DNA of 64,000 bases. It comes from Parvularculales bacterium. GTDB lineage: Bacteria; Pseudomonadota; Alphaproteobacteria; JAPOUT01; JBAJNM01. Positions 3,424-57,257 of this stretch are shown one piece after another. The notes below the pieces were generated by a model, which was not told the DNA's origin, did no database searches, and saw only the letters and a list, made by a program, of their open reading frames with translations. Positions within the stretch are counted from its first letter, which is position 1. Each line of letters begins with the position of its first letter. The position numbers and the translations under genes were made by a program. The DNA is taken from NCBI GenBank assembly GCA_036881865.1, contig JBAJNM010000001.1, positions 22,847 to 86,846 on the forward strand, written 5' to 3'.

Positions 3424-3921
3424 TTATTCAGCATCCTCAACAGGCGACGCCGTCAACCGAACCATAACATCCACTCTAGAAACCTTCATCCCCGAGGGAA
3501 CATTCTGCCCCCCAGAAAACACCTCGCCAATTTTTAAACTCTCATGCCCCCATTCAACGTCAACCAGTATCCCTTCATCCTCAAGAAAATAATGATAGTG
3601 GGGCGACAAATTAGTATCAAAATAAACACCAGAATTATCCACAATTACTTCCTTGAGCAATCCAGCCTCTGTAAATTGACGAAGTGCATTGTAGACTGTC
3701 GCCAAAGAAACCCCCACGCCAGAATCCAATGCTTCACGATACAGGCTATCCGCCGTAACATGCCGTACTCCCTGCTCAAACAAAAGCCGTCCCAGAGCCA
3801 TACGCTGACGTGTCGGGCGCAGCCCAGCCTGCCGTAACTGCTCAAACACCGAGGTAAAAGCACGCTTTTTCTGTGCGCCTTGCTTGTAGTCTTTTGTCTT
3901 CATAAGGTACATTCTACACAA
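3424..3921 (-). CDS. irr: Fur-family iron response regulator (Irr-like)
   Basis: LRPTRQRMALGRLLF...VSLATVYNALRQFTEAGLL...YFDTN...GM.V..VDVMVRL matches rhizobial Irr. Divergent from fabA, as in Rhizobiales. The true start may be the internal MKTKDYK (about 3903). Confidence 0.8.
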   Translation of the reverse strand: MCRMYLMKTKDYKQGAQKKRAFTSVFEQLRQAGLRPTRQRMALGRLLFEQGVRHVTADSLYREALDSGVGVSLATVYNALRQFTEAGLLKEVIVDNSGVYFDTNLSPHYHYFLEDEGILVDVEWGHESLKIGEVFSGGQNVPSGMKVSRVDVMVRLTASPVEDAE

Positions 3922-4665: not shown

Positions 4666-5880
4666 ATGAGACGAGTCGCCGTAACAGGTATGGGAATTGT
4701 ATCTTGCATTGGCAATAACTCTCAGGAAGTGCTGGCAAGCCTCCGAGAAGGTCGCTCTGGCATTACCGCCGCCGATGATCATAAAGAGTATGGCTTTCGC
4801 AGTCAGGTTCACGGTCGCCCAACGCTGGCCATAGAAGAGGTCGTTGATCGTCGTGCTCGTCGCTTTATGGGGGACGGTGCTGCTTGGAATTATGTGGCCA
4901 TGGAGCAAGCTATCCAAGATGCCGGTCTTGAAAATGGTGATATTCAAAATGAGCGCACCGGCATGGTGATGGGTTCCGGGGGCCCCTCAGTGAGTACTAT
5001 TGTTCAAGCTGCCGATACAACCCGTGAAAAAGGCCCAAAAAAAGTAAGCCCCATGGCAGTGCCCAAAGCCATGTCCAGCACAAATTCAGCCACCCTTGCA
5101 ACGCCGTTTGGTATTCATGGTGTTAATTATTCCATTTCATCTGCATGTGCTACGTCAACCCACTGCATTGGCAATGCCGCTGAACTCATCCAATGGGGCA
5201 AGCAGGATGTTATGTTTGCCGGTGGGGGAGAAAGTTTGGACTGGGCACTCTCTGTCATGTTTGATGCTATGGGGGCTATGTCATCTAACTACAATGATAC
5301 ACCGTCTACCGCTAGTCGTGCTTATGACAAAAATCGTGATGGTTTTGTTATTGCAGGCGGAGCGGGAGTTCTTATTTTGGAGGAGCTTGAGCGTGCCAAA
5401 GCACGGGGGGCTAAAATATATGCTGAAGTTGCAGGCTATGGCGCTACGTCAGATGGTCACGACATGGTGCAGCCCAGTGGCGAGGGGGGTGTGCGATGCA
5501 TGAAGATGGCCATGGCCAATTTAGACCAGCCTGTTGATTATATTAACCCTCATGCCACCTCCACACCGGTGGGAGATGTTATAGAAATTGATGGATTACG
5601 GGAAGTCTTTGGCGATGACATGCCGCCCATTAGTGCGACAAAATCCTTAACCGGACACTCTCTTGGGGCGGCAGGCGTTCAAGAGGCTATTTATTCTCTT
5701 TTGATGATGAATAATAGTTTCATTTGCCCCTCAGCTCATATTGAAGAAATGGACCCAGCGTTTACAGATATTCCTATTATTCAATCGCGATGTGATGATG
5801 TGCGCATTGATTGTATACTCTCGAATAGTTTTGGTTTTGGTGGCACTAACGGAACGCTAGTCTTTACGCGCTATGACTAA
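4666..5880 (+). CDS. fabB: beta-ketoacyl-ACP synthase I FabB
   Basis: 404 aa [18 protein letters not shown]-terminus and the active-site region; follows fabA. Confidence 0.93.
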
Positions 5881-6727
5881 TAAAACTGCAGGGCCTGCCA
5901 TGTCCCCCCCCAGCCCCCTAATGGCGGGGCGGCGAGGCCTTGTTATGGGGGTTGCTAATGACCATTCCATTGCGTGGGGTATTGCACAGTTGCTTGCCAG
6001 CCACGGAGCCGAAATGGCTTTTACCTATCAGGGTGACGCTTTGTTGCGGCGCGTTAAACCTTTAGCTGAAAGCCTTAACGCTCCTCTTATCTTGCCGTGC
6101 GATGTAACCAACGATAATGATTTGGATCAACTCTTGAGCACCCTTGAAAGAGAATGGCAAACGTTAGATTTTGTAGTGCACGCCATTGCGTGGTCCGGGA
6201 AAGATCAACTCCAAGGGGCTTATATCAATACTGATAGAGATAGTTTTCTCAAAACTATGGATATATCCTGCTATTCCCTAACGGCTATAGCACAACGCAT
6301 AGCACCCTTAATGACGGGCGAGACAGGGGGGGGAATAATCACGCTCAGCTACGGAGGCAGTGAGCGTGTCATGCCCAGCTACAACGTCATGGGGGTCGCT
6401 AAGGCTGCTCTTGAATCTAGCGTGCGATATTTGGCTGCGGACTTAGGTCCGCAAGGTGTGCGCATTAATGCTATTTCGGCAGGGCCAGTGCGCACCTTGT
6501 CGGGGGCAGCCGTTGCCGGAGCACGTAGAGTTGCCAAATGGAGCCAACGCCATGCAGCTTTACCGGACGTTACAATCGAGCCTGACCATGTAGCCGGAGC
6601 CGCTCTTTATTTGCTCAGCGACTTATCAACCAGGGTAACCGGTGAAGTTTTATATGTAGATGCCGGATACCGCACCATGGGGATGCCCCGCGGAGACAGT
6701 CTAGCTACCTTGACAGACGATGCCTAG
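5873..6727 (+). CDS. fabI: enoyl-ACP reductase (NADH) FabI
   Basis: [18 protein letters not shown] Rossmann motif and the [22 protein letters not shown] catalytic region. The start is probably internal. Confidence 0.9.
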
Positions 6728-20131: not shown

Positions 20132-21412
20132 TTAACCACCACCCTTAGCCTGATTGCATTTCGGACAGGCGACCTGTCCGTTAGAGACAATCGTCTTCCC
20201 ACCCTTGGTGTGCGGGACGATATGGTCAGCGTGCCACTCATGCCAACCAAGCTTCTCCCCACCACAATGCATTTTTATCTGGCAAACACCTTTACCCCGT
20301 CTAAAGATCGCCAGCCGTTGCTCATGTGAGAATGCCCGGGTCTCATCCTTGAACTCAATGTCAGGGAAATCAGAGAAGAATCGACGCTCGACATAATCCA
20401 ATCTCCCCTGAATAGATTCTCTCGAATCGGTCGAAGAGCTGGTTAACCCTTTATATTCGATGAGGCTCGGGTCCCGTTCTTCCTCGTCAAGATTATCGTT
20501 GTCCCTTCGCTTCTTTTCGAAGTCAATAAACCACTGGGACAGTTTGACCTCGGTTTCTTCATGGACATAGCGACCTATGAGAGTTGAGCCGAGGCAGTAG
20601 AGAGTGATCGCGTTGTAGCGTTCCAGTTCGGGCGTTTTTTCTGGAAAGGCCCGATGGAGGTAGTCAAGCACATGGATGACCTTCTTTGCATCCTTGCAGT
20701 TGTCATCAAACCGGGTGTTTTCCTGATACATTCGGTTCAAGTCGCCATCGCGAATACTGGTAGGTCCACCGGCTATCTCCAAGCAGATCATCTGAGCCGC
20801 CACAAGGTCAAATGTAAATCTAGAATTGGTGAACTTGCAGTTTTCGAAAAACGGATGCTCTGCTATCCTCTTCACGAAATCCCGCATCTGCCCTGACATC
20901 GCGTTCCGTTTCTCCTGAGCCTTCAGCGTGGTCCCGTTCTGCAAACGTAGGAACATCTCCCGCACTTCGTCTTCTTCATCCGTCTTAACGGCGTCCTCAA
21001 CGACAACCACATCAAGCACATATATGTCAAAGTTCCTGCGAAGATCAAAATCCAGATCATTATAATGTTTTCCAGCTATCTCATAACTTTTTCCAGCTTT
21101 ATTCACGTCAACGACTGGGTCAGCGTCCTTGGCCAATGGAAATTCGCCATCACAGAACTCCCAGAGAGTTCGAAGCCGTTGTTGTCCGTCAACTACGGCG
21201 AACTCGTGTTGTGAATCATCGTCCAGCCGTTGCCAGTACATTTTGGGAATGTCATACCCACGCAGAATAGTATCAATCAGAAGCTGTTTCTGCTTTTGTG
21301 TCCAAACGGGTGGTCTCTGGTAATCCGGGGTCGGATCAACTATATTTTTGAGACCGCAAAGCGTAGGGATGGGATATCTTTCTTTACTTGTCCGCATGAA
21401 GTAACTCCTCAA
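20132..21412 (-). CDS. DUF262 (ParB/Srx-like, DGQQR) N-terminal domain fused to a C-terminal Cys4 HNH endonuclease; GmrSD-like type IV restriction candidate
   Basis: N-terminus has DYQRPPVW...FAVVDGQQRLRTL, the DUF262 signature. C-terminus has C-x6-C...HADHIVPHTKGG...N...CPKCN, an HNH zinc finger. Own SD (GAGGAG). Convergent with dnaJ and not part of the core synteny. Confidence 0.8.
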   Translation of the reverse strand: MRSYFMRTSKERYPIPTLCGLKNIVDPTPDYQRPPVWTQKQKQLLIDTILRGYDIPKMYWQRLDDDSQHEFAVVDGQQRLRTLWEFCDGEFPLAKDADPVVDVNKAGKSYEIAGKHYNDLDFDLRRNFDIYVLDVVVVEDAVKTDEEDEVREMFLRLQNGTTLKAQEKRNAMSGQMRDFVKRIAEHPFFENCKFTNSRFTFDLVAAQMICLEIAGGPTSIRDGDLNRMYQENTRFDDNCKDAKKVIHVLDYLHRAFPEKTPELERYNAITLYCLGSTLIGRYVHEETEVKLSQWFIDFEKKRRDNDNLDEEERDPSLIEYKGLTSSSTDSRESIQGRLDYVERRFFSDFPDIEFKDETRAFSHEQRLAIFRRGKGVCQIKMHCGGEKLGWHEWHADHIVPHTKGGKTIVSNGQVACPKCNQAKGGG

Positions 21413-21694
21413 AACAATGAATTACAATCTTCCGTGAGCCTCAACATAACATCTAAAAAAAAGCCTTTTTCAAAAGCATTTGGCCTATTGCTATGACCAC
21501 CATAGCCCTCTACCGCCCAACTGTGGAAAACCATGATGTTATTTGGGTCTTTTTCTAATCCTTACCATTTACCAACCAGGGTACATCAATAATATTATTA
21601 AAAATCAACCCCTTATGAATGTCTGTTTGCCCAGCGCAACCACCCTACCTCTTAAAGGATTGGGGATAAATCTGTGGGTTTGTATTTTATGTTC

Positions 21695-21720
21695 TCAAAA
21701 ATATACGCCTTTTTAAAGGC
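21695..21720 (-). terminator. possible weak intrinsic terminator after hslU
   Basis: Minus strand reads GCCUUUAAAAAGGC followed by GUAUAUUUUU. The stem is short. Confidence 0.3.
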
Positions 21721-21738
21721 TTAAAGGATCTGCGTACC

Positions 21739-37852: not shown

Positions 37853-38724
37853 AAAGATAGACGATCGATAATATGGCGTCTCAACTCTTCTGTGACCTCA
37901 GGGTGCACTCCGAACCATGCCTCAAACCCAGGCACCGCTTGATGCAACAACATACCCAAGCCGTCTACCACCCTAAGACCTCTAGCCGCCGCCGCCTGCA
38001 AAAGGGGTGTTTCAAGTGGCGTATAAACAACGTCACAAACCACTGCTTCCCGAGGTAGCATCGCAATATCGAACTCAAGGGGCGGGGCACCTGTCATACC
38101 CAACGTGCTGGTGTTAACCAAAAGGCTGGCGTTGGTAAGACAAGAAGATAAGCGCTCTTTATCACCAAAGGACAAGACGTCCCCTGCCACCCCTAAATCA
38201 TCCATAATTGCTTGACCCTTAGAAAGGGTACGATTGACCACAGAAAAAAATGACACGCCAGAATCCGCTAAAGCCCCGATAACCGCCCGCGCCGCACCGC
38301 CTGCTCCTATAATAACCACCGGCCCTACCTGCCATGTTGGGGTCTGGCTTTGAAGCCCTGCTATAAACCCGACCCCGTCTGTATTGTACCCTATCACATT
38401 ATCGTGGGTAAAAACGAGAGTGTTAACCGCCCCCAAATGGTGGGCAGCTTTGTCCAATTTTCCATATTTTTGCACATAATCAAAAACTGCTATTTTGTGA
38501 GGAACCGTTACATTAACCCCCGCATAGTCTTGTGCACGCATATCATTCAAAGCGCTTTCTATGTCATCAGGTTTTATGGCGATGGCCTCGTAACGTCCCT
38601 GAGTTATGCCATAAGTGCGCAACCAAAATTGATGAATAAGAGGTGAGCGGCTATGCTCTATAGGCCAACCTATAACCCCTGCTCGTATTTCTGCCGCATT
38701 ATTCTTATTCACTACATCAGGCAC
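37849..38724 (-). CDS. aroE: shikimate dehydrogenase
   Basis: GVIGWPIEHSRSP substrate motif and GAGGAARAV NADP motif. Confidence 0.9.
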   Translation of the reverse strand: MPDVVNKNNAAEIRAGVIGWPIEHSRSPLIHQFWLRTYGITQGRYEAIAIKPDDIESALNDMRAQDYAGVNVTVPHKIAVFDYVQKYGKLDKAAHHLGAVNTLVFTHDNVIGYNTDGVGFIAGLQSQTPTWQVGPVVIIGAGGAARAVIGALADSGVSFFSVVNRTLSKGQAIMDDLGVAGDVLSFGDKERLSSCLTNASLLVNTSTLGMTGAPPLEFDIAMLPREAVVCDVVYTPLETPLLQAAAARGLRVVDGLGMLLHQAVPGFEAWFGVHPEVTEELRRHIIDRLSL

Positions 38725-39383
38725 TATGAACCCACCACCCCCCGATGACGTAAGGCCTCCAGCAGTGGCAAGAGGGGGAATCCTAAAACTGTAAAATAAC
38801 TGCCTTCAATTTTGTCAAAAAGCTGAACGCCCACGCCCTCCAGATGATAACAGCCAACACTACCTAGAATATCCTCCCCGACTCTCTCTAAATATTCCTC
38901 TAAGAAACCATCACTAACTAAGCGCATAGTCAGCACAGCTCGGTCACAAAAACGCCATTCTATCATGCCAGCTCGAGCTATAACTACAGCACTATAGAGT
39001 TCATGAGAGCGACCTCGCAACGCCTCCAGCGTACGCCGTGCGCCTGCCATATCTTTGGCTTTGTCAAAAAAATCACCTTCACACCATAAAATCTGGTCGG
39101 CTCCAATGACAAAAGAAGCCGGCTCTTCACTACTGACCGCTAGCGCTTTAGCTTCAGCTAATGCGCTCGCCAAAGTTTTAGGGGCAACCCCCTCAAGTTG
39201 ATCCTTTATCGCAGCCTCATCAACGCCAGATGCCTGCACGGTGCATATTAGCCCTGCACTCTCAGCAAGTCGTCTGCGGCTTACGCTGGTGGATGCCAAA
39301 ATCAAAGGCACACTCCTATCAAGGTGCATAATCTTCCTGACGCTTTGAGTACAAATCAAGTATGGCGGCTGCAGTCTCCTCAA
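38724..39383 (-). CDS. maf: Maf-like nucleoside triphosphate pyrophosphatase
   Basis: LILASTSVSRRRL N-terminus. Confidence 0.87.
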   Translation of the reverse strand: MRRLQPPYLICTQSVRKIMHLDRSVPLILASTSVSRRRLAESAGLICTVQASGVDEAAIKDQLEGVAPKTLASALAEAKALAVSSEEPASFVIGADQILWCEGDFFDKAKDMAGARRTLEALRGRSHELYSAVVIARAGMIEWRFCDRAVLTMRLVSDGFLEEYLERVGEDILGSVGCYHLEGVGVQLFDKIEGSYFTVLGFPLLPLLEALRHRGVVGS

Positions 39384-40152
39384 CCGAGCGGCGGGTCACA
39401 TCAATCACCGCCCATCCCCAGCGCGTAAAAAGTCGACGCGCATCCTGCACTTCATCATTTACTAGATCTTTATCTACGTAATTGGTTTGTCGGTTTTCTA
39501 CTAAAACCGACATGCGATTGCGCCTCACCTCAATCAAGCGTTCCGGATTTGTTGTTAACCCCACTATGAGAGGATGCTTAACCTCCCCGAGGATAGGGTC
39601 TAGTGGAATTCCCGGTACAATAGGTACATTAGCTGCCCGAATACCTCGATGAGCCAGATACATGCAGGTTGGAGTTTTTGACGTGCGGCTAACTCCCACG
39701 AGGATAACATCAGCTTCGTTTAAGGTCTCAGTCATCTGTCCGTCATCGTGAGCGATGGTATAATCAAGAGCCGCCATACGTTTAAAATATTCTGAATTCA
39801 TAACATGTTGACCTCCCGGGCGATGAGTAGACTCGCTACCTAGGTAGTGACCAAGAGCTTCAATAGCTGGGTCCAGAACTGATACATGAGGTATAGACAG
39901 AATATGGCATTGGCTTTCCAGTTGACGGCGCAAGTTATTATCAACCAGTGTGTACATAACCATACCGGGTTTTTCTTGAATAGCAGAACACACTCGCTCT
40001 AGTTGACGAGCACTCCTCACAAGAACATGAACGTGTTCAACGGGGTTCGCCATATCATATTGGGCACATGCAGCGCGAGCTATGGTATTGAGCGTTTCAC
40101 CAGTTGAGTCCGATATAAGATGGAGGTGAAAGATATCCTTATTATCAGACAT
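39319..40152 (-). CDS. pyruvate, phosphate dikinase regulatory protein (DUF299 kinase/phosphotransferase)
   Basis: FHLHLISDSTGET and P-loop GVSRTSKTPTCMYLA. This is the DUF299 gene that flanks the origin in Caulobacter. Confidence 0.87.
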   Translation of the reverse strand: MSDNKDIFHLHLISDSTGETLNTIARAACAQYDMANPVEHVHVLVRSARQLERVCSAIQEKPGMVMYTLVDNNLRRQLESQCHILSIPHVSVLDPAIEALGHYLGSESTHRPGGQHVMNSEYFKRMAALDYTIAHDDGQMTETLNEADVILVGVSRTSKTPTCMYLAHRGIRAANVPIVPGIPLDPILGEVKHPLIVGLTTNPERLIEVRRNRMSVLVENRQTNYVDKDLVNDEVQDARRLFTRWGWAVIDVTRRSVEETAAAILDLYSKRQEDYAP

Positions 40153-40644
40153 AAAAATAATAACTTTCGAATACTAGAGCCTCTATGAAGTGGGAAAACA
40201 TAGTTAATATCAAGTTAATAAACTGTACATTTTATAGTCGGAGGACCTCAATTCAAAAACAGTTAGAATATGTCCTCTGTTCTCCCTTACTTTTTTCCAC
40301 CGGAAAAAATACATATCCAGCCTTTACGGAATAATGTGGAGAAGAATAATTCACGATTATAGCATATTTTCCCACATCTCTCTTTTAATTATTGGCTCCA
40401 TTAATCAATGAAATAGACAAGAGAACATATGAAAATCATCGTGTAAGTTTCCATCTACGCCTATTGTCCACATAGTTCTAAAATACTTAAGACTTCTTTT
40501 AAACATGAGAAGCCGTAACTTCGCTGTACACAAGTTCAGGAGAATTTATGATATACACATGACCCACAGGGATTCACATCTATCTACTCCTTATATTATA
40601 AGACTCTATATATTACAAAGGAGATAAACAGATAACAAGGAAAC
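40153..40644. other. candidate chromosomal replication origin (oriC) in the AT-rich hemE/DUF299 intergenic region
   Basis: About 33% GC against about 50% in the flanks. TTAATATCAAGTTAA (TTAA-N7-TTAA, 40204-40218). DnaA-box-like 9-mers TTGTCCACA (40464-40472), TGACCCACA (40560-40568) and TTCTCCACA (complement of 40336-40344). Confidence 0.6.
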
Positions 40645-41703
40645 ATGACAGAACATTATCTAAACAATACAAAACATTTTCATTCTGTTTTCTCAGATGA
40701 AATTAATTTTTCAAGACCTCCACCGGTATGGTTTATGAGACAAGCAGGGCGCTACTTACCGGAATACAAATCATTACGCGCACAAGCAAAAGATTTTCTG
40801 GATTTTTGTTTTACTCCCTCTCTTGCAGCAGAAGCAACTTTGCAGCCTATTAGGAGATTTAATTTTGATGCAGCTATTCTCTTTGCAGATATTCTTCTTG
40901 TTCCATATGCGTTAGGACAGTCTGTACGTTTTGAAGAAAACATTGGGCCTGTTCTTGAATCTCTTAGCGGTAACCCAACCCTTCTCAGTAGATTGTCTCC
41001 TGATAATGTCATGGGATGTCTTGACTGTGTTTATGAGACAGTATCTCGTGTAAAATCAGAGCTTCCATCTGATGTTGCTCTGATTGGTTTTGCCGGTGCG
41101 CCGTGGACGGTTGCCACTTATATGATTGGTGGGAGAAGCACAAAGGACCGTGCTCCTGCTCTTGCATATGCTTCTAGGAAACCACAGGAGTTAACCTTTT
41201 TATTAGATATGTTGGTTGAGGCCACGGTTCCTTATCTTGAAGGACAGATAAAAGCAGGCGCTGAGGTTATTCAGTTGTTTGACACGTGGGCAGGGGATTT
41301 ATCAGAATTTGATTTTGAGTCTTATGTTATCAAGCCTACTGCTGAGATTGTTCGACGGCTTAGAAGTAAATACCCTCATGTGGATATAATTGGATTTCCT
41401 CGTGGGGTTGGTAATCTCTATGTGGACTATGTCAAACGGACTGGTGTTTCGGGGATTAGTATTGATGCTAGTGTTGAACCTTCATGGGCGGCACAGCATC
41501 TTTGTCCTTTAGGAGTGGTTCAGGGTAATATTGACCCTGAGGTGGTGGTACTGGGGGGTGAGGTGATGGAGGCCAGCGTTGCTAGATTGCGAGAAACCCT
41601 TTATGGGTTGCGTTTTATTGCAGGCCTTGGCCATGGTATTCTACCTCACACACCACCAGAGCATGTAGCAGAACTGGTAGATGAGATAAGACGTATGCCA
41701 TGA
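40645..41703 (+). CDS. hemE: uroporphyrinogen decarboxylase
   Basis: PVWFMRQAGRYLPEY URO-D signature. Confidence 0.93.
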   Translation: MTEHYLNNTKHFHSVFSDEINFSRPPPVWFMRQAGRYLPEYKSLRAQAKDFLDFCFTPSLAAEATLQPIRRFNFDAAILFADILLVPYALGQSVRFEENIGPVLESLSGNPTLLSRLSPDNVMGCLDCVYETVSRVKSELPSDVALIGFAGAPWTVATYMIGGRSTKDRAPALAYASRKPQELTFLLDMLVEATVPYLEGQIKAGAEVIQLFDTWAGDLSEFDFESYVIKPTAEIVRRLRSKYPHVDIIGFPRGVGNLYVDYVKRTGVSGISIDASVEPSWAAQHLCPLGVVQGNIDPEVVVLGGEVMEASVARLRETLYGLRFIAGLGHGILPHTPPEHVAELVDEIRRMP

Positions 41704-41712
41704 GGGGAAACC

Positions 41713-42801
41713 GTGAGCGCCCAACTAAGTAAGAAAGGGGAAAAAGAGAGATGGGCAGTTGTTCTGCTTAATTTGGGCGGACCGGATAGTCTTAAATCTG
41801 TGCGTCCATTTCTGTTTAATTTATTCAGAGATAGGGCAATTATCCGTGCGCCGACTTTAGTGAGGTTGCCCCTTGCGTGGTTGATTTCAACACGCCGTGC
41901 TCCCGTAGCCCGCGCTATATACGAAGAGATAGGTGGACGCTCTCCTATTTTGAAAGAGACTCAGGCTCAGGCCCAGTCCCTTGAATCTCACATAACAGAA
42001 GAAGTAAACAACGTAAAAATCCGCGCGTTTATTGCCATGCGATATTGGCATCCCCGCGCCTATGAAACGGCACAAGCGGTGGCCGCCTTCAAACCTGACC
42101 GCCTTATTGTGTTGCCATTATATCCACATTATTCAACCACCACCACGGAATCCTCTCTACAAGACTGGAATAAAGCTGCTTACAGTGCAGGCCTTAACAT
42201 TCCCACTCATGATATTCATATTGTGTGTTGCTATCCCGAAGAGCCGGATTTCATAATTGCCCATGCTGAACTCATAGTCCCCCATCTTGCCGTTTCTCCT
42301 GAAAGTAACACTCGCCTTTTATTTTCAGCACACGGTTTGCCAGAGAGAATTGTGGCCGCCGGTGATCCCTATCCCCACCAAATGAGAAAGACGTGTGAGA
42401 GCGTTATTAAAGCCTTGAGGTCATTAAGAGCAGGTTCCCCTGACCCGGAATGGAAACTTTGTTATCAAAGTCGGGTAGGACCCCTTGCATGGATTGGTCC
42501 CTATACGGAAGATGAGATTATCCGTGCGTCTAATGAGAAAAAAAATATTGTCATAGCTCCTATATCTTTTGTTTCAGAGCATTCTGAAACCCTTGTGGAA
42601 CTGGATATTGAATATAAACATTTGGCCGACGCTCATGGGGCTGCAAGCTACCGACGCGTACCGGCCTTGGGGACAAATCCGGCGTTTATAAAAGCTTTAG
42701 GGAGTCTTGTCAGGCGTGCGGTCAAGAAAGAAGGGTTAATGTGCCCTGAAGATACGCCAGGCTTTCCCTGTGCAGCGGATGCTCTACAGGCTGTGTTATG
42801 A
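41713..42801 (+). CDS. hemH: ferrochelatase
   Basis: VLLNLGGPDS N-terminus and the FSAHGLP motif. Confidence 0.93.
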   Translation: MSAQLSKKGEKERWAVVLLNLGGPDSLKSVRPFLFNLFRDRAIIRAPTLVRLPLAWLISTRRAPVARAIYEEIGGRSPILKETQAQAQSLESHITEEVNNVKIRAFIAMRYWHPRAYETAQAVAAFKPDRLIVLPLYPHYSTTTTESSLQDWNKAAYSAGLNIPTHDIHIVCCYPEEPDFIIAHAELIVPHLAVSPESNTRLLFSAHGLPERIVAAGDPYPHQMRKTCESVIKALRSLRAGSPDPEWKLCYQSRVGPLAWIGPYTEDEIIRASNEKKNIVIAPISFVSEHSETLVELDIEYKHLADAHGAASYRRVPALGTNPAFIKALGSLVRRAVKKEGLMCPEDTPGFPCAADALQAVL

Positions 42802-43256
42802 GCGCTGTTGTAACGTTTCTTGAGAACTCGTATGTATGGCTTAAGGCTTTTCATGTAATCGCTGTTGTGTTTTGGATGGCGGCGTTGTTTTATTTGCCGA
42901 GGTTGTTTGTCTACCACGCAGAAGCGGGGGATGATGCCGTACGTGGTGTGGCGTTTAAAACTATGGAGAGGCGTCTGCGACGCGGCATTATGACTCCGGC
43001 TATGATAGTTGCGTGGCTCTTAGGGGGTCTGCTTTTAGTGGCCGGAGGATTTAGTGTTTTTGGAGAGGGTTGGTTTTGTCTGAAAATCATTTTTTTATTG
43101 GGGTTAACAGGGTTTCATGGTTTTTTAGCTCGTTGTCGGCGGGGTTTTGAGAGAGATGCCAATCGTTACAGTCCCCTTTTTTACCGTTTTGTTAACGAAG
43201 TGCCACCACTTTTAGCAATCTTTGTTATTGTTTTGGCTATTGTGCGTCCTTTTTGA
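42798..43256 (+). CDS. hemJ: protoporphyrinogen oxidase HemJ (UPF0093/CopD-like)
   Basis: KAFHVIAVVFWMAALFYLPRLFVYH segment. Four TM helices. Follows hemH. Confidence 0.8.
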   Translation: MSAVVTFLENSYVWLKAFHVIAVVFWMAALFYLPRLFVYHAEAGDDAVRGVAFKTMERRLRRGIMTPAMIVAWLLGGLLLVAGGFSVFGEGWFCLKIIFLLGLTGFHGFLARCRRGFERDANRYSPLFYRFVNEVPPLLAIFVIVLAIVRPF

Positions 43257-43575
43257 GCATGCAAACAATATCGCGCTCTAGGTTGCAGTTTTCCTCTGTA
43301 TTTTTTGCTTGCAACAAGACTTTCATCATTATATAAAGGGGATACCTAACTGGTAAACAAAAGCCGTTCTGATTTGCGCTTTGGATACCTTTCATAATCT
43401 TCTTTATCTGTTTTCCTTGACGTCAAGCTTCTGTGCGAAAAGCATGTGCTAGGCGACATGCGTCCGGCAGGATGCTTAGAGGTCAGATTATCCCCCTATT
43501 GTCATCGGCACATTAGTGCTACGCCCCTAAAAATTTTCCCCACAACATACCTTAAATTATAAGTGAGGCACCATT

Positions 43576-44844
43576 ATGCAGAAAATGAAACTGCAAGAAC
43601 TAAAGGCCAAACAACCAACAGAACTCCTAGCTTTTGCCGAAGAACTGGAAATTGAAAATGCCAGTGCCCTGCGTAAACAGGATATGATATTTGCCATATT
43701 AAAAAAACTGGCCGAACAGGAGGTTAGTATTTTCAGTGAGGGTGTTGTTGAGGTTGTGCAAGACGGCTTTGGATTTTTGCGCTCAAAGGAAGCCAACTAT
43801 TTACCCGGTCCTGATGATATCTACATAAGTCCCAATCTGGTAAGGCGGTTTTCATTGCGCACAGGTGATACGGCAGAAGGAGAAATCACCGCGCCTCGCG
43901 ATGGAGAGCGTTATTTTGCCTTAAACAAGGTAACCTCTATCAATTTTGAAGACCCTGAAAAAACCCGCCATAAAATCCATTTTGACAATCTAACGCCTTT
44001 GTATCCCGATGAGGGAGTGGTCATGGAGATTGATAATACCGATGATAAAAAAGATTTATCAACCCGCGTCATTGATATTGTAGCCCCTCTGGGCAAGGGA
44101 CAGCGTGCCCTTATTGTAGCCCCCCCCCGCACCGGCAAAACAGTTCTTCTGCAAAACATAGCTCACTCAATTACGGCTAATCACCCGGAATGTTATCTGA
44201 TTGTGTTGTTGATTGACGAGCGTCCGGAAGAGGTGACTGATATGCAACGCTCTGTTCAGGGGGAGGTTATCTCGTCCACGTTTGACGAGCCTGCCACCCG
44301 TCACGTGCAAGTAGCGGAAATGGTCATCGAAAAAGCCAAACGCCTTGTGGAGCATGGTCGTGATGTTGTTATTTTGTTGGATAGCATCACCCGTTTAGGG
44401 AGAGCCTATAATACGGTGGTGCCTTCTTCCGGTAAGGTGTTGACCGGTGGTGTGGATGCCAATGCTTTGCAACGCCCAAAGAGGTTTTTTGGGGCGGCCC
44501 GTAACATAGAAGAGGGGGGATCCTTGACGATTGTATCCACAGCGCTGATTGACACAGGCTCTCGTATGGACGAGGTGATTTTTGAAGAGTTCAAGGGAAC
44601 CGGTAATTCAGAACTGGTGCTAGACCGAAAGGTAGCGGACAAGCGTGTGTTTCCGTCAATTGATATCCTCAAATCAGGCACCCGTAAGGAGGAGTTACTG
44701 GTGGACAAAGCAGCTCTTCAGAAAATGTACATTTTGCGCCGGATTCTTAATCCTATGGGATCGGTGGATGCTATTGAATTTCTGCTGGATAAACTCCGCT
44801 CTACCAAGACTAACAATGAGTTCTTTGACTCTATGAATACATGA
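43576..44844 (+). CDS. rho: transcription termination factor Rho
   Basis: 422 aa with RNA-binding OB domain, Walker A and Q/R loops. Confidence 0.97.
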
Positions 44845-45829: not shown

Positions 45830-48658
45830 ATGCGTTTGTCCTGGAATGAGATTCGTATCCGTGCCGCTGCCTTTGCTAAGGATTGGGAAGGTGAGGGCTA
45901 TGAAAAGGGGCAAACGCAGCTTTTCTACCGCGACTTTTTCAAGGTCTTTGGTGTGTCCGTCCGTCGTGTCGCCAGCTTTGAAGAGCCGGTTAAGAATTTG
46001 GGCGACAGGCGCGGTTTTATCGACCTGTTCTGGAAAGGTGTCGTTCTGGTTGAACAAAAAAGCATCGGGCGGAATCTTAAGAAGGCAAAGATACAGGCGT
46101 TAGATTATTTCCCGGGTCTGAAAGATACGGATCTTCCCCGTTGCATTCTTCTCAGCGACTTCCAGAGCTTTGAGTTGTACGATCTGGAGGAAGATGACGC
46201 GCTCTCAATAACGATTGCCGACCTGCCAAAACATGTGGAAAAATTCGGTTTTATTCTTGGAGTACAGAAACGCTCATTTAAGGATCAGGATCCGGTAAAC
46301 ATTCAAGCGTCCGAACTGGTCGATAAACTACACGACGCACTTGAGGATGTCGGGTATACAGGCCATGATCTTGAGCAGTTTCTTGTCCGCACTGTTTTTT
46401 GCTTATTTGCGGACGATACCGGCATTTTCGAGCCGCGCGATATCTTTCTTGACCTTCTGGAAAACCGAACCCGCGAGGATGGTTCCGACCTTGGCGGCTG
46501 GTTATCTCAGTTGTTCCAGATACTGAATACACCTGAAGACAAACGCCCCAAGAACCTTGATTTGGATCTTGCCCGCTTTCCGTACGTGAATGGTGATTTA
46601 TTCCGTGACCCTTTGCTGATCCCGTCTTTTGATACCGTCATGCGGCGCAAGCTGATTGATGCTTGTCAATTTGATTGGTCTGGTATATCCCCTGCGATAT
46701 TCGGTTCACTTTTTCAGTCGGTGATGGATAAAGATGAACGTCGTGCACAAGGTGCACATTACACGACCGAGAAGAACATCCTCAAGGTAATCGAGCCCCT
46801 CTTTTTAACCGATCTTAGAGACGAGTTTGACCGCCTCAGGGTCCGCAAGGACAGTCGACGTCGTGTCGAATTGCAGGCATTTCATAAACGTCTGGCCGCT
46901 CTGACATTTTTTGATCCGGCCTGCGGCTGTGGCAACTTCCTGATTATTACCTATCGTGAATTGCGGGTTCTTGAGATCGATTTGATCCGCGAGCTTCGCG
47001 CTTACCGCACTAGTGAAGACCAGCAAGAGCTGGACGCCGCTGATCTGTCACTTTTGAACGTCGATCAGTTTTACGGGATTGAGATTGGCGAATTTCCCGT
47101 TCGTATCGCTGAAACCGCGCTGTGGATGATTGACCACATCATGAACAATAGGCTCAGCTTGGAGTTCGGGCAGAATTTTGTGCGTATTCCGCTCAGGAAA
47201 TCGCCGCATATTGTCCATGGTGATGCACTGGAAACAGATTGGGCCAGCGTTCTGCCGCCCTCAAAATGCAGTTTCATTTTGGGCAATCCACCTTTTAGTG
47301 GTGCGAAGCATCAAAAGGACGAGCAACGCTCACAGGTTCACGCCATTGCGGCCTTGGGCAAGTCTGGGGGTACATTGGATTATGTCACTGCGTGGTTCAT
47401 TAAGGCAGGTGAGTATGTAAAAGGCACGTCTATACACATTGGTTTCGTGTCAACTAATTCCATAACCCAAGGTGATTAGGTAGCACAGCTTTGGCCAATC
47501 CTGTTTGAGCGCTACAAGCTGGAAATTACCTTTGCCCATCGCACCTTCGTCTGGGGTTCTGATGTGCGCGGCAAGGCTCATGTGCGTGTTGTCATCATCG
47601 GGCTAACAGAATCCAAGGCTGTTCCAAAGGATCGGCGGTTGTTTTCCTATGATGACATTAACGGCGAACCCCATGAAAGTGTACACACTGCCCTATCACC
47701 CTACCTGTTCGACGCAAGCGGCTTGTTTGATTCGCACATTGCGGTACGGGAAGAGAGCCAACCTATAAATGGTTTGCCGAAATTAATTACAGGATCTCAG
47801 CCAATTGACGATGGAAATTTCATTATAGGTTCTGAAGAATACCATCCATTGAAGAAAGAAAACCCTGAGTTTGCATCTTGGTTTCGGCCGTTTATAGGTG
47901 CACGGGAATTTATTCAGGGTTCAAAACGTTATATTGTTCACCCTGCTTCAATACCACCGCAGATAGCTAAAAAATTAAACGGATTGAGCAGGCGCCTTGA
48001 GGCCGTTCGAAAATTTCGTCATGCAAGCAAGAGAATATCAACAAAAGCGATTGCCGATAGTCCAGGCGAATTCGGCGTCACAGTCATTCCAGACGAGCCA
48101 TTTCTCGCGATTCCGCAGGTGAGCAGTGAACGCCGTCAATATGCGCCTATCGGCTGAATTAATCCGCCATTAATGCCGAGTGATAAGCTCCGTGTTTTAC
48201 TCGGCGCTACAAAACCTCTATTTGGCGTCTTAACCTCGTCAATGCACATGGCTTGGATGCGCCTTGTCACAGGGCGTCTGGAAAGCCGTTACATGTATTC
48301 TGTCGGCGTGGTTTACAACACCTTTCCAATGCCACCAGTTTCTGAATTTGTTTTAGGGAAATTGGAGCCTTTGGCTCAGGCCGTGCTTGATGCCCGTGCG
48401 GCGCACCCAGATTCAACGTTAGCGGATCTGTATGATCCCGACCTGATGTCATCGGTGTTGCGTAAAGCCCATCAGGCACTTGACCGCTCCGTCGACGGTC
48501 TTTACCGCAAACAGGCCTTTTCATCGGACCGTGAAAGAGTAGAGCATCTGCTGGCGATGTATGAAAAAATGAAAGCCCCTCTGGCAGATAAGAGTGGAAA
48601 GAAGACCATTGCAAGAAAGCAGACTACTAAGAAAATCAAAACACGAGTTGATTCATGA
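45830..48658 (+). pseudogene. MmeI-like type IIL/IIG restriction-modification enzyme (nuclease + N6-adenine MTase + TRD), inactivated by two in-frame nonsense codons
   Basis: ORFs 45830-47479, 47564-48157 and 48173-48658 share one reading frame. They are separated only by TAG (47477-47479) and TGA (48155-48157). N-terminal MmeI-type nuclease region (GFIDLFWKGVVLVEQKS). MTase motif I FDPACGCGNFLI and motif IV LGNPPF. Total 943 codons. Confidence 0.8.
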
Positions 48659-54794: not shown

Positions 54795-55479
54795 TTTTGG
54801 GCCGCTTGATTTTCAGCGCGCCACGGATGTTTCACATGAAACAATGGCGCGTCTTGCTTGCTATATTGATCTTTTAAAGCGCTGGAATCAGCATATAAAC
54901 CTTGTCTCTCCCCAAAGTATAACTTCTTTGTGGTGGCGGCATATGTTGGATTCCGCCCAGCTGTTTCCACTGGCATCGCCAGAGGCCCGTCACTGGTTAG
55001 ATGTGGGAAGCGGCGGAGGCTTTCCGGCTATGGTGCTGGCCATTATGGCTATGGAGCGTATCCATGAGGCAACAATCTTGCCCTTTTCTTTTGCCCTTGT
55101 GGAAAGTGATAACCGTAAAGCCGCTTTTTTGCGGGAAGTCACCCGCCAGACCGGCGCGCCGGCAAAGATTTATGCTGATCGGGTTGAAAATCTGGAATCC
55201 ATAGACATCTTCGAAGAAGGAGTAGATGTAGTGACAGCACGTGCTTGCGCTCCCCTGCCCCGGCTTTTAGAATGGGTGCTGCCTTTTTTTGGGGAAAATA
55301 CAGTGGGGGTTTTTCCTGTAGGTCAATATATAGTAGATATAAAAAACCAATCTACTATATATAGTACGAACAAGGTGCAATTTACCATAGAACACCTAAC
55401 GAGTCGCACGGATCCATCATCAACAATCCTGAAAATCCGTCGCATTCTTACACCGTTAAGGCGTAACCTCAAAGTGTAA
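54775..55479 (+). CDS. rsmG: 16S rRNA (guanine527-N7)-methyltransferase RsmG (GidB)
   Basis: [13 protein letters not shown]...[12 protein letters not shown] motif. Confidence 0.87.
54818..54833. promoter_or_regulatory. parS-like centromere site inside the rsmG 5' end
   Basis: TGTTTCACATGAAACA, one mismatch from the TGTTTCACGTGAAACA consensus. Lies 650 bp upstream of parA. Confidence 0.5.
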
Positions 55480-55482
55480 ATC

Positions 55483-56286
55483 ATGACAGATGCCCCCCGA
55501 AAACTCGTGTTAGCCAACCAAAAAGGTGGTGTTGGTAAAACTACCGTGGCTATTAATCTAGGAACGGCACTAGCCTCTATCGGTAAAAAAGTTCTGCTAT
55601 TGGACCTTGACCCTCAAGGCAATGCCAGCACAGGCCTTGGCGTTAATCCGCAACAACGGAGGCTCTCGTCTTATGAGTTGTTAACGGAGGATATACGCCT
55701 TAAAGAGGTTATACTGTCAACCGCCGTCTCAGGTCTGGATTTGATACCCGCAAGTCTTGATTTATTAGGGGTGGAACTGGAACTGGCCGAAGCTCCACAT
55801 CGTGCTCATCGATTGGCTTCGGCGCTAACGGAGAATCGTGCTGCTGTAGACTTTTATGATTATATTTTTATGGACTGCCCCCCTTCTCTTAACCTTTTGA
55901 CCATAAATGCTATGACCGCCAGTGATGCTATTTTGGTACCGCTACAAAGTGAGTTTTTTGCGCTGGAGGGGTTAAGTCAACTTCTGAGCACCGTTGAGCA
56001 GGTGCGTAGTAATTTGAATGAACGTCTTACCATTCAGGGTATTGTACTAACTATGTATGATCAGCGTAATAATTTGTGCGAACAAGTGGCGACGGATGTC
56101 CGTCAGGTCTTGGGAGATAAAGTGTATGACACAATAATTCCTCGCAATGTCCGCATATCGGAGGCCCCGTCTCATGGGATGCCGGTTTTGGTGTACGACC
56201 ACCAGTGTGCCGGAAGTCGTTCCTTTATGAAATTGGCTGCCGAACTCATGATGCGCGAGGAAAACGCGCATCATGAAAAGGGATAA
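55483..56286 (+). CDS. parA: chromosome partitioning ATPase ParA
   Basis: Deviant Walker A KGGVGKTT. Confidence 0.93.
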   Translation: MTDAPRKLVLANQKGGVGKTTVAINLGTALASIGKKVLLLDLDPQGNASTGLGVNPQQRRLSSYELLTEDIRLKEVILSTAVSGLDLIPASLDLLGVELELAEAPHRAHRLASALTENRAAVDFYDYIFMDCPPSLNLLTINAMTASDAILVPLQSEFFALEGLSQLLSTVEQVRSNLNERLTIQGIVLTMYDQRNNLCEQVATDVRQVLGDKVYDTIIPRNVRISEAPSHGMPVLVYDHQCAGSRSFMKLAAELMMREENAHHEKG

Positions 56287-57257
56287 TGATGGCAAAAAAA
56301 ACGGATAATGAGTCTGCAAACACGGATACGTCCAGTTCAACCTCTATCTTGGGCCGGGGCCAAGAACGCGGGTTGGGACGCGGGCTGGCCTCTCTGATTG
56401 GTGCAAATAAAGAACAGCTGCCCCACGCTACCGCCTCCGGTTCGGGTGTGAGAACAGTACCGGTAGCGTGGCTTTATCCCTCCACTTTGCAACCACGCCG
56501 CCACATGACTGACGATGCACTAGCGGCTTTGGCGCAATCTATTCAGGAGCATGGTGTGGTGCAGCCCATTGTGGTGCGACCACACCCCTCTATAGAAGAG
56601 CGCTATGAAATCATTGCCGGTGAACGGCGCTGGAGGGCGGCTCAAAAAATTCAGCGTCATGAAGTGCCGGTGGTCATCCGCGAAATGGATGATGAGGAAG
56701 CTTTTGAGGTCGCGGTTGTTGAGAATGTCCAAAGGGCCGACTTGGATGCTGTTGAAGAGGCATTGGCCTACCGAAAAATGGTGGATGAGTTTAAGCACTC
56801 TCAGGAACAAGTGGCAAAAATTATCGGCAAAAGCCGCGCTCATATAGCTAACATGATACGCTTATTAACATTGCCGGCGGAGGTGCAGGAAATGCTCATT
56901 GAAGGAGTGCTGACAGCCGGTCACGCCCGTGCTTTGGTGGGAGTCTCTGACGCGGTTAATCTGGCCCGACAAATTGTCTCCCAAGGCCTATCGGTTCGGG
57001 CGGTAGAACGTCTTGTAGCCAAACGCCGTGCAGATAAAACCAAGGACAAAAATAAACCTGCTGCCACAACCCACACTGCAAAAGGGAGCGAGGCCGATAT
57101 ACAGCAGCTAGAGCGTTCTCTTTCCCTTGCGTTGGGCTTATCTGTTTCCCTGACCCATAACAGTGAGACCGGTAGCGGTGCAGTGCGTATTATCTGGCGC
57201 ACAACAGAACAGTTTGATGCTCTCCATTCTCGCCTTATGAGCCCGCCCTCTACCTAA
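56286..57257 (+). CDS. parB: chromosome partitioning protein ParB
   Basis: ParB box GERRWRAA plus HTH. Confidence 0.93.
   Translation: MMAKKTDNESANTDTSSSTSILGRGQERGLGRGLASLIGANKEQLPHATASGSGVRTVPVAWLYPSTLQPRRHMTDDALAALAQSIQEHGVVQPIVVRPHPSIEERYEIIAGERRWRAAQKIQRHEVPVVIREMDDEEAFEVAVVENVQRADLDAVEEALAYRKMVDEFKHSQEQVAKIIGKSRAHIANMIRLLTLPAEVQEMLIEGVLTAGHARALVGVSDAVNLARQIVSQGLSVRAVERLVAKRRADKTKDKNKPAATTHTAKGSEADIQQLERSLSLALGLSVSLTHNSETGSGAVRIIWRTTEQFDALHSRLMSPPST

Follow-up and report, generated by a model that had tools for sequence, protein, structure and literature searches.

Where does an uncultured alphaproteobacterium of the Parvularculales begin to replicate its chromosome? The question is raised by a 64-kb stretch of its contig JBAJNM010000001.1 (all 64,000 nucleotides of which are called the window here), in which a short AT-rich gap separates the divergent genes DUF299 and hemE. 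The initial annotation placed a putative chromosomal replication origin (oriC) in this gap by analogy with Caulobacter and S. meliloti. The S. meliloti origin is said to have been assigned to the same hemE position by Sibley et al. in 2006. Our analysis backs the proposal through a switch in strand asymmetry, a cluster of DnaA boxes and conserved synteny, and we put the probability that the gap is, or holds the core of, a chromosomal oriC of the hemE-linked Cori type at roughly 0.85. As the gap stands at the canonical place for the class, the finding is sound but ordinary. In Caulobacter, Cori lies between hemE and duf299 (PMC6393856, PMC1914354), a position that has been mapped experimentally (PMC6393856). 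More widely, oriCs of the 'alphaproteobacterial-chromosome type' are located upstream of hemE and carry TT(A/T)TNCACA boxes (PMC5144681), and hemE is used as an indicator gene by Ori-Finder (PMC2275245).

Position and composition of the hemE-linked gap

The intergenic gap (40153-40644, no strand assigned) provides the minimum bounds of the predicted origin, and the functional origin may reach into the flanking genes by analogy with Cori. It spans 492 bp at a guanine-plus-cytosine (GC) content of 32.7% (0.327) against 0.492 for the whole window, close to the ~490 bp and ~33% GC of the initial annotation. No other 492-bp stretch in the 64 kb is lower in GC, the next lowest having 0.386, and the second, third and fourth least stable 40-mers of the window all fall within it. 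On its left is DUF299 (kinase-pyrophosphorylase, COG1806; 39319-40152, minus strand; PF03618 Kinase-PPPase, E=3.7e-91) and on its right hemE (uroporphyrinogen decarboxylase; 40645-41703, plus strand; PF01208, E=2.5e-102), the two genes diverging across the gap. Gene order runs mltA-Tim44-fxsA-secB-dnaQ-coaE-aroE-maf-DUF299 to the left and hemE-hemH-hemJ-rho ... mnmE-gidA-gidB-parA-parB to the right. By Pfam assignment this is the location of a Cori-type origin, including the surrounding dnaQ-coaE-aroE-maf ... hemH-rho neighbourhood. An independent Logan assembly of the same organism (SRR27962760, L009) covers 38088-44474 with 3 differences in 6387 bp, of which the sole one within the gap (40540) lies outside all boxes. 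An Rfam scan of 39800-41000 returned a chance-level match alone (13 bits, where the gathering score is 290) and no known RNA element.

Strand asymmetry switches at the gap

Gene orientation confounds raw skew, and GC skew at third codon positions (GC3 skew) was therefore computed gene by gene and expressed on the plus strand. Left of the gap, 34 of 36 genes have a negative GC3 skew; right of it, 18 of 21 have a positive one. On each side the sign is shared by both gene orientations (left, -0.131 for plus and -0.227 for minus genes; right, +0.244 for plus and +0.121 for minus genes). The cumulative GC3 curve drops steadily to 40152 and climbs from 40645, which places its minimum exactly at the gap. 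Across the window, the GC disparity curve has its cumulative minimum at 40986, the AT curve its maximum at 40793 and the MK curve its maximum at 40791, while the RY curve reaches its minimum at 43553, outside the gap. Coding bases are also distributed asymmetrically, with the minus strand carrying 64% of them left of the gap and the plus strand 88% on its other side. Since G exceeds C to the right, the polarity is that of an origin and not of a terminus; a terminus reading was rejected on the same ground, as the cumulative skew shows a minimum rather than a maximum. Within the 64 kb, the skew switch coincides with the gap independently of gene orientation. A switch located elsewhere, which the initial annotation had named as an argument against an origin here, is not seen in the window, where the minimum lies at or near the gap instead.

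A cluster of DnaA boxes, mostly oriented towards hemE

Strict boxes were defined by at most one mismatch to TTATCCACA or to the Caulobacter G-box TGATCCACA, and relaxed boxes by an intact CACA with at most two mismatches in TTAT, with chance levels taken from simulations (first-order Markov simulations of the gap for strict boxes, 5000 simulations for relaxed boxes). The gap contains three strict boxes, a number reached by 0.46% of 492-bp windows (simulation P=0.0028). Its seven relaxed boxes represent the window maximum and compare with a simulated mean of 1.08, none of the 5000 simulations reaching seven (P<2e-4). They start at 40335 (minus strand), 40368, 40464, 40524, 40551, 40560 and 40570, so that six of the seven are oriented towards hemE. 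Of the 18 intergenic regions that are 100 bp or longer, the gap ranks best, the runner-up having two strict boxes and one relaxed. Matches to TTATNCACA or TGATCCACA are clustered here above chance, as in a Cori-type origin.

The two best boxes are TTCTCCACA (40335-40343, minus strand), with one mismatch at the tolerant position 3, and TTGTCCACA (40464-40472, plus strand), which is the same as the high-affinity box of Mycobacterium and Streptomyces (PMC4285127). They form an inverted pair 120 bp apart, and the 40335-40343 box pairs as part of an inverted 15-mer (I5) with 40464-40478. Closest to hemE, three DnaA-box-like 9-mers on the plus strand make up a head-to-tail array (40551-40578) that points to the gene, comprising ATATACACA (40551-40559), TGACCCACA (40560-40568) and, after a single g, GGATTCACA (40570-40578). 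TGACCCACA is one mismatch from the G-box TGATCCACA and two from TTATCCACA. The 9-mers proposed at 40464-40472 and 40560-40568 in the initial annotation are found as given, but its box on the complement occupies 40335-40343 and not 40336-40344.

Weaker box-like sequences are also present. The relaxed-box scan recovered CTGTACACA (40524-40532, plus strand), together with TTTCCCACA (40368-40376, plus strand), which is followed after 5 nt by CTT TTA ATT ATT. The TTTCCCACA region forms a direct repeat (D2) with 40575-40594 and an inverted 15-mer (I3) with 40187-40201. The latter is an inverted copy of the ATRTTTTCCCACWTC 15-mer on the minus strand (87% complementary) and contains the box-like TTTCCCACT. 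TTTCCCACA and its following tract possibly constitute a second, weaker module of box and unwinding type.

Beyond the gap, a perfect TTATCCACA at 3635-3643 sits within a fur-family gene (3424-3921) at a great distance from the skew switch, and this isolated copy is probably due to chance or is regulatory. A second box-like cluster (21413-21738), with TTTTCCACA at 21522 and TTATCCCCA at 21661 (both minus strand) and one further box, occupies a low-GC gap upstream of a GmrSD/HNH-type endonuclease gene (20132-21412) and downstream of hslU. The interval 21178-21701 is the only other place in the window with three strict boxes; it was considered as an alternative origin and rejected, there being no skew switch there.

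A predicted unwinding element next to hemE

An easily melted AT-rich element (40580-40619, no strand assigned) lies directly downstream of the tandem boxes and is likely the unwinding site. Only one 40-mer in the 64 kb is less stable. The element has -39.7 kcal/mol compared with a window mean of -54.8, and it contains two imperfect 16-nt direct repeats (D3; 40586-40601 and 40603-40618) that are 17 bp apart. A G-free run of 30 nt (40572-40601) follows a GGG junction and contains five NTN triplets. These form the DnaA-trio-like tract CTA CTC CTT ATA TTA (40584-40598, plus strand; complement 3'-GAT GAG GAA TAT AAT-5'). The orientation of box to trio in the gap was taken from that of E. coli oriC. 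The published search for a basal unwinding system (BUS) looks for a DnaA box with at most two mismatches, followed across a spacer of up to 16 bp by three or more trios whose central A, a T on the complementary strand, is conserved (PMC8287927); in the gap, TGACCCACA (two mismatches), a 15-nt spacer and five NTN triplets are found. As in a BUS, a same-orientation box tandem leads through the GGG junction to five triplets starting from CTA (complement 3'-GAT-5') and then to a low-stability AT-rich element. Unlike a BUS, the boxes are two to three mismatches from TTATCCACA, and the trio consensus is matched by the first triplet alone.

This arrangement suggests how initiation might proceed. DnaA-ATP would first occupy the two best boxes, TTCTCCACA (40335-40343, minus strand) and TTGTCCACA (40464-40472, plus strand), and would then cooperatively fill the weaker boxes of the same orientation, chiefly the ATATACACA/TGACCCACA/GGATTCACA array (40551-40578) facing hemE. 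The growing DnaA oligomer would extend across the GGG junction onto the G-free trio-like tract (40584-40598) and melt the neighbouring AT-rich element (40580-40619). Helicase loading would follow, with two forks departing in opposite directions. DnaA binding, its order of occupancy and the exact unwinding site are predictions from sequence.

Conservation of the locus in distant relatives

The HemE of the window has 100% identity to a protein from a metagenome-assembled genome (MAG) that NCBI labels 'Parvularculales bacterium', and the closest other HemE among 5.8 billion proteins is 59% identical. A scan of genome contigs gave just 30-46% matches and no close relatives for phylogenetic footprinting, and the comparison was therefore made with distant loci. 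Ten alphaproteobacterial loci were used, including those of Govanella unica, Parvibaculum, Rhodospirillales MAGs and an AT-rich Stappiaceae MAG. The gene order dnaQ-coaE-aroE-maf-DUF299 | hemE-hemH-hemJ-rho recurs in the ten, and the divergent DUF299-hemE pair at its core is kept, with gaps of 292-547 bp and HemE proteins 46-59% identical to that of the window. Pooled over the window and the ten loci, strict boxes occur at 6.15 per kb in the gaps versus 0.43 per kb in the flanks (14-fold); the corresponding densities in the window alone are 6.1 and 0.50 per kb. An unbiased 6-mer enrichment from which the window was excluded returned ATCCCC/TCCCCA and TTATCC/ATCCAC/TCCACA/CCACAG as top motifs, which represent two box classes. 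In eight of the ten relatives' gaps the longest G-free run stands in the same place, after a tandem [TRATCCYCR][nnATCCACA]-GGC and ending 24-76 nt before hemE. The order near hemE of boxes, GG(C/G), a G-free C/A/T tract and a T/A-rich tract is common to eight or nine of the ten, and the 40551-40578 array is the positional counterpart of the relatives' tandem.

Among these relatives, the last ~100 nt before hemE in loci L010-L018 read [T(A/G)ATCC(C/T)C(G/A)][nnATCCACA]-GGC, a CTACAAC-like G-free tract and then TTTTTATAA. The first element of this module resembles the Caulobacter W-box (TCCCCA) and is lacking in the organism studied here. In the Stappiaceae MAG (L001, with a 1.34-Mb chromosome), the orthologous gap (5528-5943) has 17% GC, and a textbook tandem TTATTCACATTATTCACA just upstream of hemE is directly followed by TTA CTA ATA ATA ACA ACA ATA. 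This locus, from a reduced genome, is a very clean case of trio-like repeats placed after boxes.

The gap shares with Cori its boundary genes and their divergent orientation, and an AT-rich element beside hemE. It also resembles Cori in that its DnaA boxes are mostly sub-consensus, with one G-box-like TGACCCACA (versus TGATCCACA), and in having GANTC sites inside it (PMC6393856, PMC4285127); in both origins TTAA-N7-TTAA is overlapped by an IHF-like match. Unlike Cori, it has one CtrA-type site instead of five, which does not overlap a DnaA box, and neither W-boxes (TCCCCA) nor an exact G-box, its best boxes being TT(C/G)TCCACA. Caulobacter has a high GC content, whereas the gap, at ~33% GC, belongs to a genome of ~49%. 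Multiple TT(A/T)TNCACA-like boxes and a place upstream of hemE are shared with the origins of S. meliloti and sphingomonads and with those predicted for Rickettsiales (PMC5144681, PMC1914354), and few or absent CtrA sites are shared with other hemE-linked oriCs (PMC4433202, PMC1914354). Some hemE-linked oriCs of other Alphaproteobacteria differ in containing several perfect TTATCCACA (four in Govanella unica, L012), of which the gap has none.

CtrA-type, IHF-type and GANTC sites

The gap has a single full CtrA-type site, the TTAA-N7-TTAA sequence TTAATATCAAGTTAA (40204-40218, no strand assigned), which falls in the third least stable 40-mer. It precedes the DUF299 start codon by 52-66 nt, and the weak box-like TTTCCCACT is 5 nt away. 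A loose IHF-type match, TATCAAGTTAATA (40208-40220), overlaps this CtrA-type site, whose function is uncertain. The site had been recorded in the initial annotation and is perfect as claimed, but a role for CtrA beyond its presence finds no support, since a full site is expected in 6% of cases by chance and occurs in none of the ten orthologous gaps. This frequency (P=0.06) is not beyond chance at such AT-richness, and sites with at most one mismatch are not enriched (2 versus 1.15 expected, P=0.31). The several CtrA sites of the Caulobacter type are not present in the gap, and its one full site neither overlaps nor abuts a G-box (TGATCCACA), the G-box-like TGACCCACA being 340 bp away. W-boxes are absent from both strands of the gap, the TTAACCAT half-site is also absent from it, and ctrA is not encoded in the 64-kb window. 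Reviews describe origins outside Caulobacter as generally devoid of CtrA sites, Rickettsia being a possible exception (PMC4468827), and the S. meliloti origin lacks them (PMC4433202); some marine Caulobacter origins gained CtrA sites independently (PMC4468827). The strict IHF consensus WATCAANNNNTTR is absent from the gap, and loose WATCAN5WTR matches begin at 40208 and 40403, the pattern being permissive in AT-rich DNA.

Two GANTC motifs (CcrM-type methylation, no strand assigned) are found in the gap. One (40571-40575) is inside the third tandem box, and the other (40602-40606) is inside the predicted unwinding element in a AAGACTCT context common to two of the relatives (L014 and L015). Their density is 4.1 per kb, compared with 1.9 per kb for the flanks, and the difference is not significant. 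Across the window GANTC is scarce, with 144 occurrences versus 220 +/- 12.5 expected from dinucleotide-preserving shuffles, which is consistent with a CcrM-type methylase in the organism. Any role of CtrA, IHF or CcrM at this origin would be putative.

Discussion

Several observations weigh against an origin in the gap. The dnaA gene is absent from the 64-kb window, and none of the DnaA boxes in the gap fits the consensus perfectly, TTATCCACA occurring without a mismatch only at 3635. Boxes of the ATCCCC/TCCCCA type, the top motif in nine of the ten relatives, are missing from it. When the hemE-proximal module of the relatives was made into a profile and run with nhmmer against the whole window, 40550-40620 was not matched, and the best hits (E=4) fell elsewhere. 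Sequence homology of the module was dropped after this result, and together with the missing ATCCCC-type boxes it means that the likeness is one of layout and not demonstrable homology. At the unwinding end, the trio pattern of five NTN triplets with a spacer of 5 or 15 nt is permissive (simulated P=0.03 per box). Furthermore, a box with a G-free run of at least 25 nt occurs three further times in the window, so that the arrangement is only mildly informative. As only 64 kb are visible, the skew minimum is local and is not shown to be global. The switch is also resolved to a few kb, with hemH (41713-42801) and the genes at 45830-48157 near zero.

The gap could instead be no more than a divergent promoter and regulatory region for DUF299 and hemE, with the AT-richness usual for such regions, in which the boxes serve as transcriptional operators, with the origin in, for example, the hemJ-rho gap (43257-43575) or outside the window. 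Promoter-like hexamer pairs do occur on both strands of the gap, and the RY minimum, the coarse skew resolution and the lack of a perfect box would all be accommodated. Moreover, because the hemE promoters of Caulobacter overlap Cori (PMC6393856), promoter and origin signals are inseparable by sequence alone. The promoter-like matches are nevertheless at the level of chance (5 versus 4.1 expected), which also left an analogy to the Caulobacter hemE Ps promoter (TGTACA-16-TATGAT, 40525-40552) unsupported. The hemJ-rho gap was rejected as an alternative origin, with no strict and two relaxed boxes compared with three and seven, and every other gap within 19 kb is devoid of strict boxes. Of the four disparity curves, three turn less than 350 bp from the DUF299-hemE gap, the equivalent gap is box-rich in ten distant relatives, and its position is that of the experimentally mapped origin in Caulobacter (PMC6393856). 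We therefore regard a purely regulatory gap as highly improbable. An explanation by assembly or rearrangement, in which the skew switch is an inversion breakpoint or a mosaic junction in the contig and marks no origin, is scarcely credible. The source is a MAG, assemblies of which can be chimeric, and the skew profile is local; yet gene order across the junction is kept in ten independent genomes and metagenomes, and the Logan assembly (L009, SRR27962760) spans it with 3 differences in 6387 bp. An inversion would also predict two switches of opposite sign, and one is seen over the 64 kb.

The remaining alternatives concern how an origin in the gap would be controlled. In a Caulobacter-style scheme, phosphorylated CtrA bound at 40204-40218, possibly in competition with IHF at TATCAAGTTAATA, would silence initiation in one cell type. 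The perfect full site, its overlap with a loose IHF-type match as in Cori (PMC6393856) and its placement in the third least stable 40-mer, with a box-like element (40187-40201) 5 nt away, are compatible with such control. GANTC avoidance, which suggests a CcrM-type cell-cycle methylase, and the independent gains of CtrA sites in some marine Caulobacter origins (PMC4468827) point the same way. However, Cori has five sites to the one here, which is expected in 6% of cases by chance, near-sites are not in excess (2 versus 1.15 expected, P=0.31), no TTAACCAT half-site accompanies it and the ten orthologous gaps lack a full site. Outside Caulobacter, origins generally show no CtrA sites (PMC4468827), and the gap lacks the strict IHF consensus. 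At 52-66 nt from the start codon of DUF299, on its upstream side, the site might just as well belong to an ordinary promoter. Control of this kind thus appears unlikely. More doubtful still is the idea that origin control in this lineage has diverged, with ATCCCC/TCCCCA boxes swapped for a CCCACA/TCCACA set, two box-TCTNT-trio-like modules (40368-40394 and 40570-40598, D2) and a single CtrA/IHF dual site gained independently at the DUF299 end. If true, it would represent a second, independent recruitment of CtrA to a hemE-type origin outside freshwater Caulobacter.

With a hemE-linked oriC in the gap as the preferred reading, the locus would give the chromosome map its zero point in an uncultured alphaproteobacterium, to whose HemE no other database sequence is more than 59% identical. 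The position would also permit replication rates to be estimated from metagenomic coverage (peak-to-trough ratio). The hemE-linked origins gain one divergent example, which lacks both consensus and W-type boxes and whose unwinding end is very AT-rich, and knowledge of how alphaproteobacterial origins work is unchanged.

Partition genes and other features of the window

The parA-parB partition operon (55483-57257, plus strand; parA 55483-56286, parB 56286-57257) follows mnmE-gidA-gidB, and a parS-like palindrome, TGTTTCACATGAAACA (54828-54843, no strand assigned), has one mismatch to the consensus. These elements stand 14-15 kb to the right of the gap, in agreement with the 15 kb of the initial annotation. 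The palindrome is a putative partition site near, and accessory to, the origin. A perfect 13-bp inverted repeat, ATATATAGTAGAT-N10-ATCTACTATATAT (55327-55362), coincides with the least stable 40-mer of the window and is contained in the 3' end of the rsmG (gidB) open reading frame (ORF). It stands ~120 bp upstream of parA and could serve as an operator of that gene or as the binding site of another protein.

Some 5 kb from the predicted origin, an MmeI-family type IIL restriction-modification gene (45830-48658, plus strand) is broken into three consecutive ORFs. The first (45830-47479) carries the N-terminal, helicase-spacer and methyltransferase domains, the second (47564-48157) the TRD, and the third (48173-48658) the end of the TRD and the C-terminal domain. 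The gene is probably decayed, and its GC3 skew, near zero or negative unlike that of its neighbours, hints at a foreign origin.

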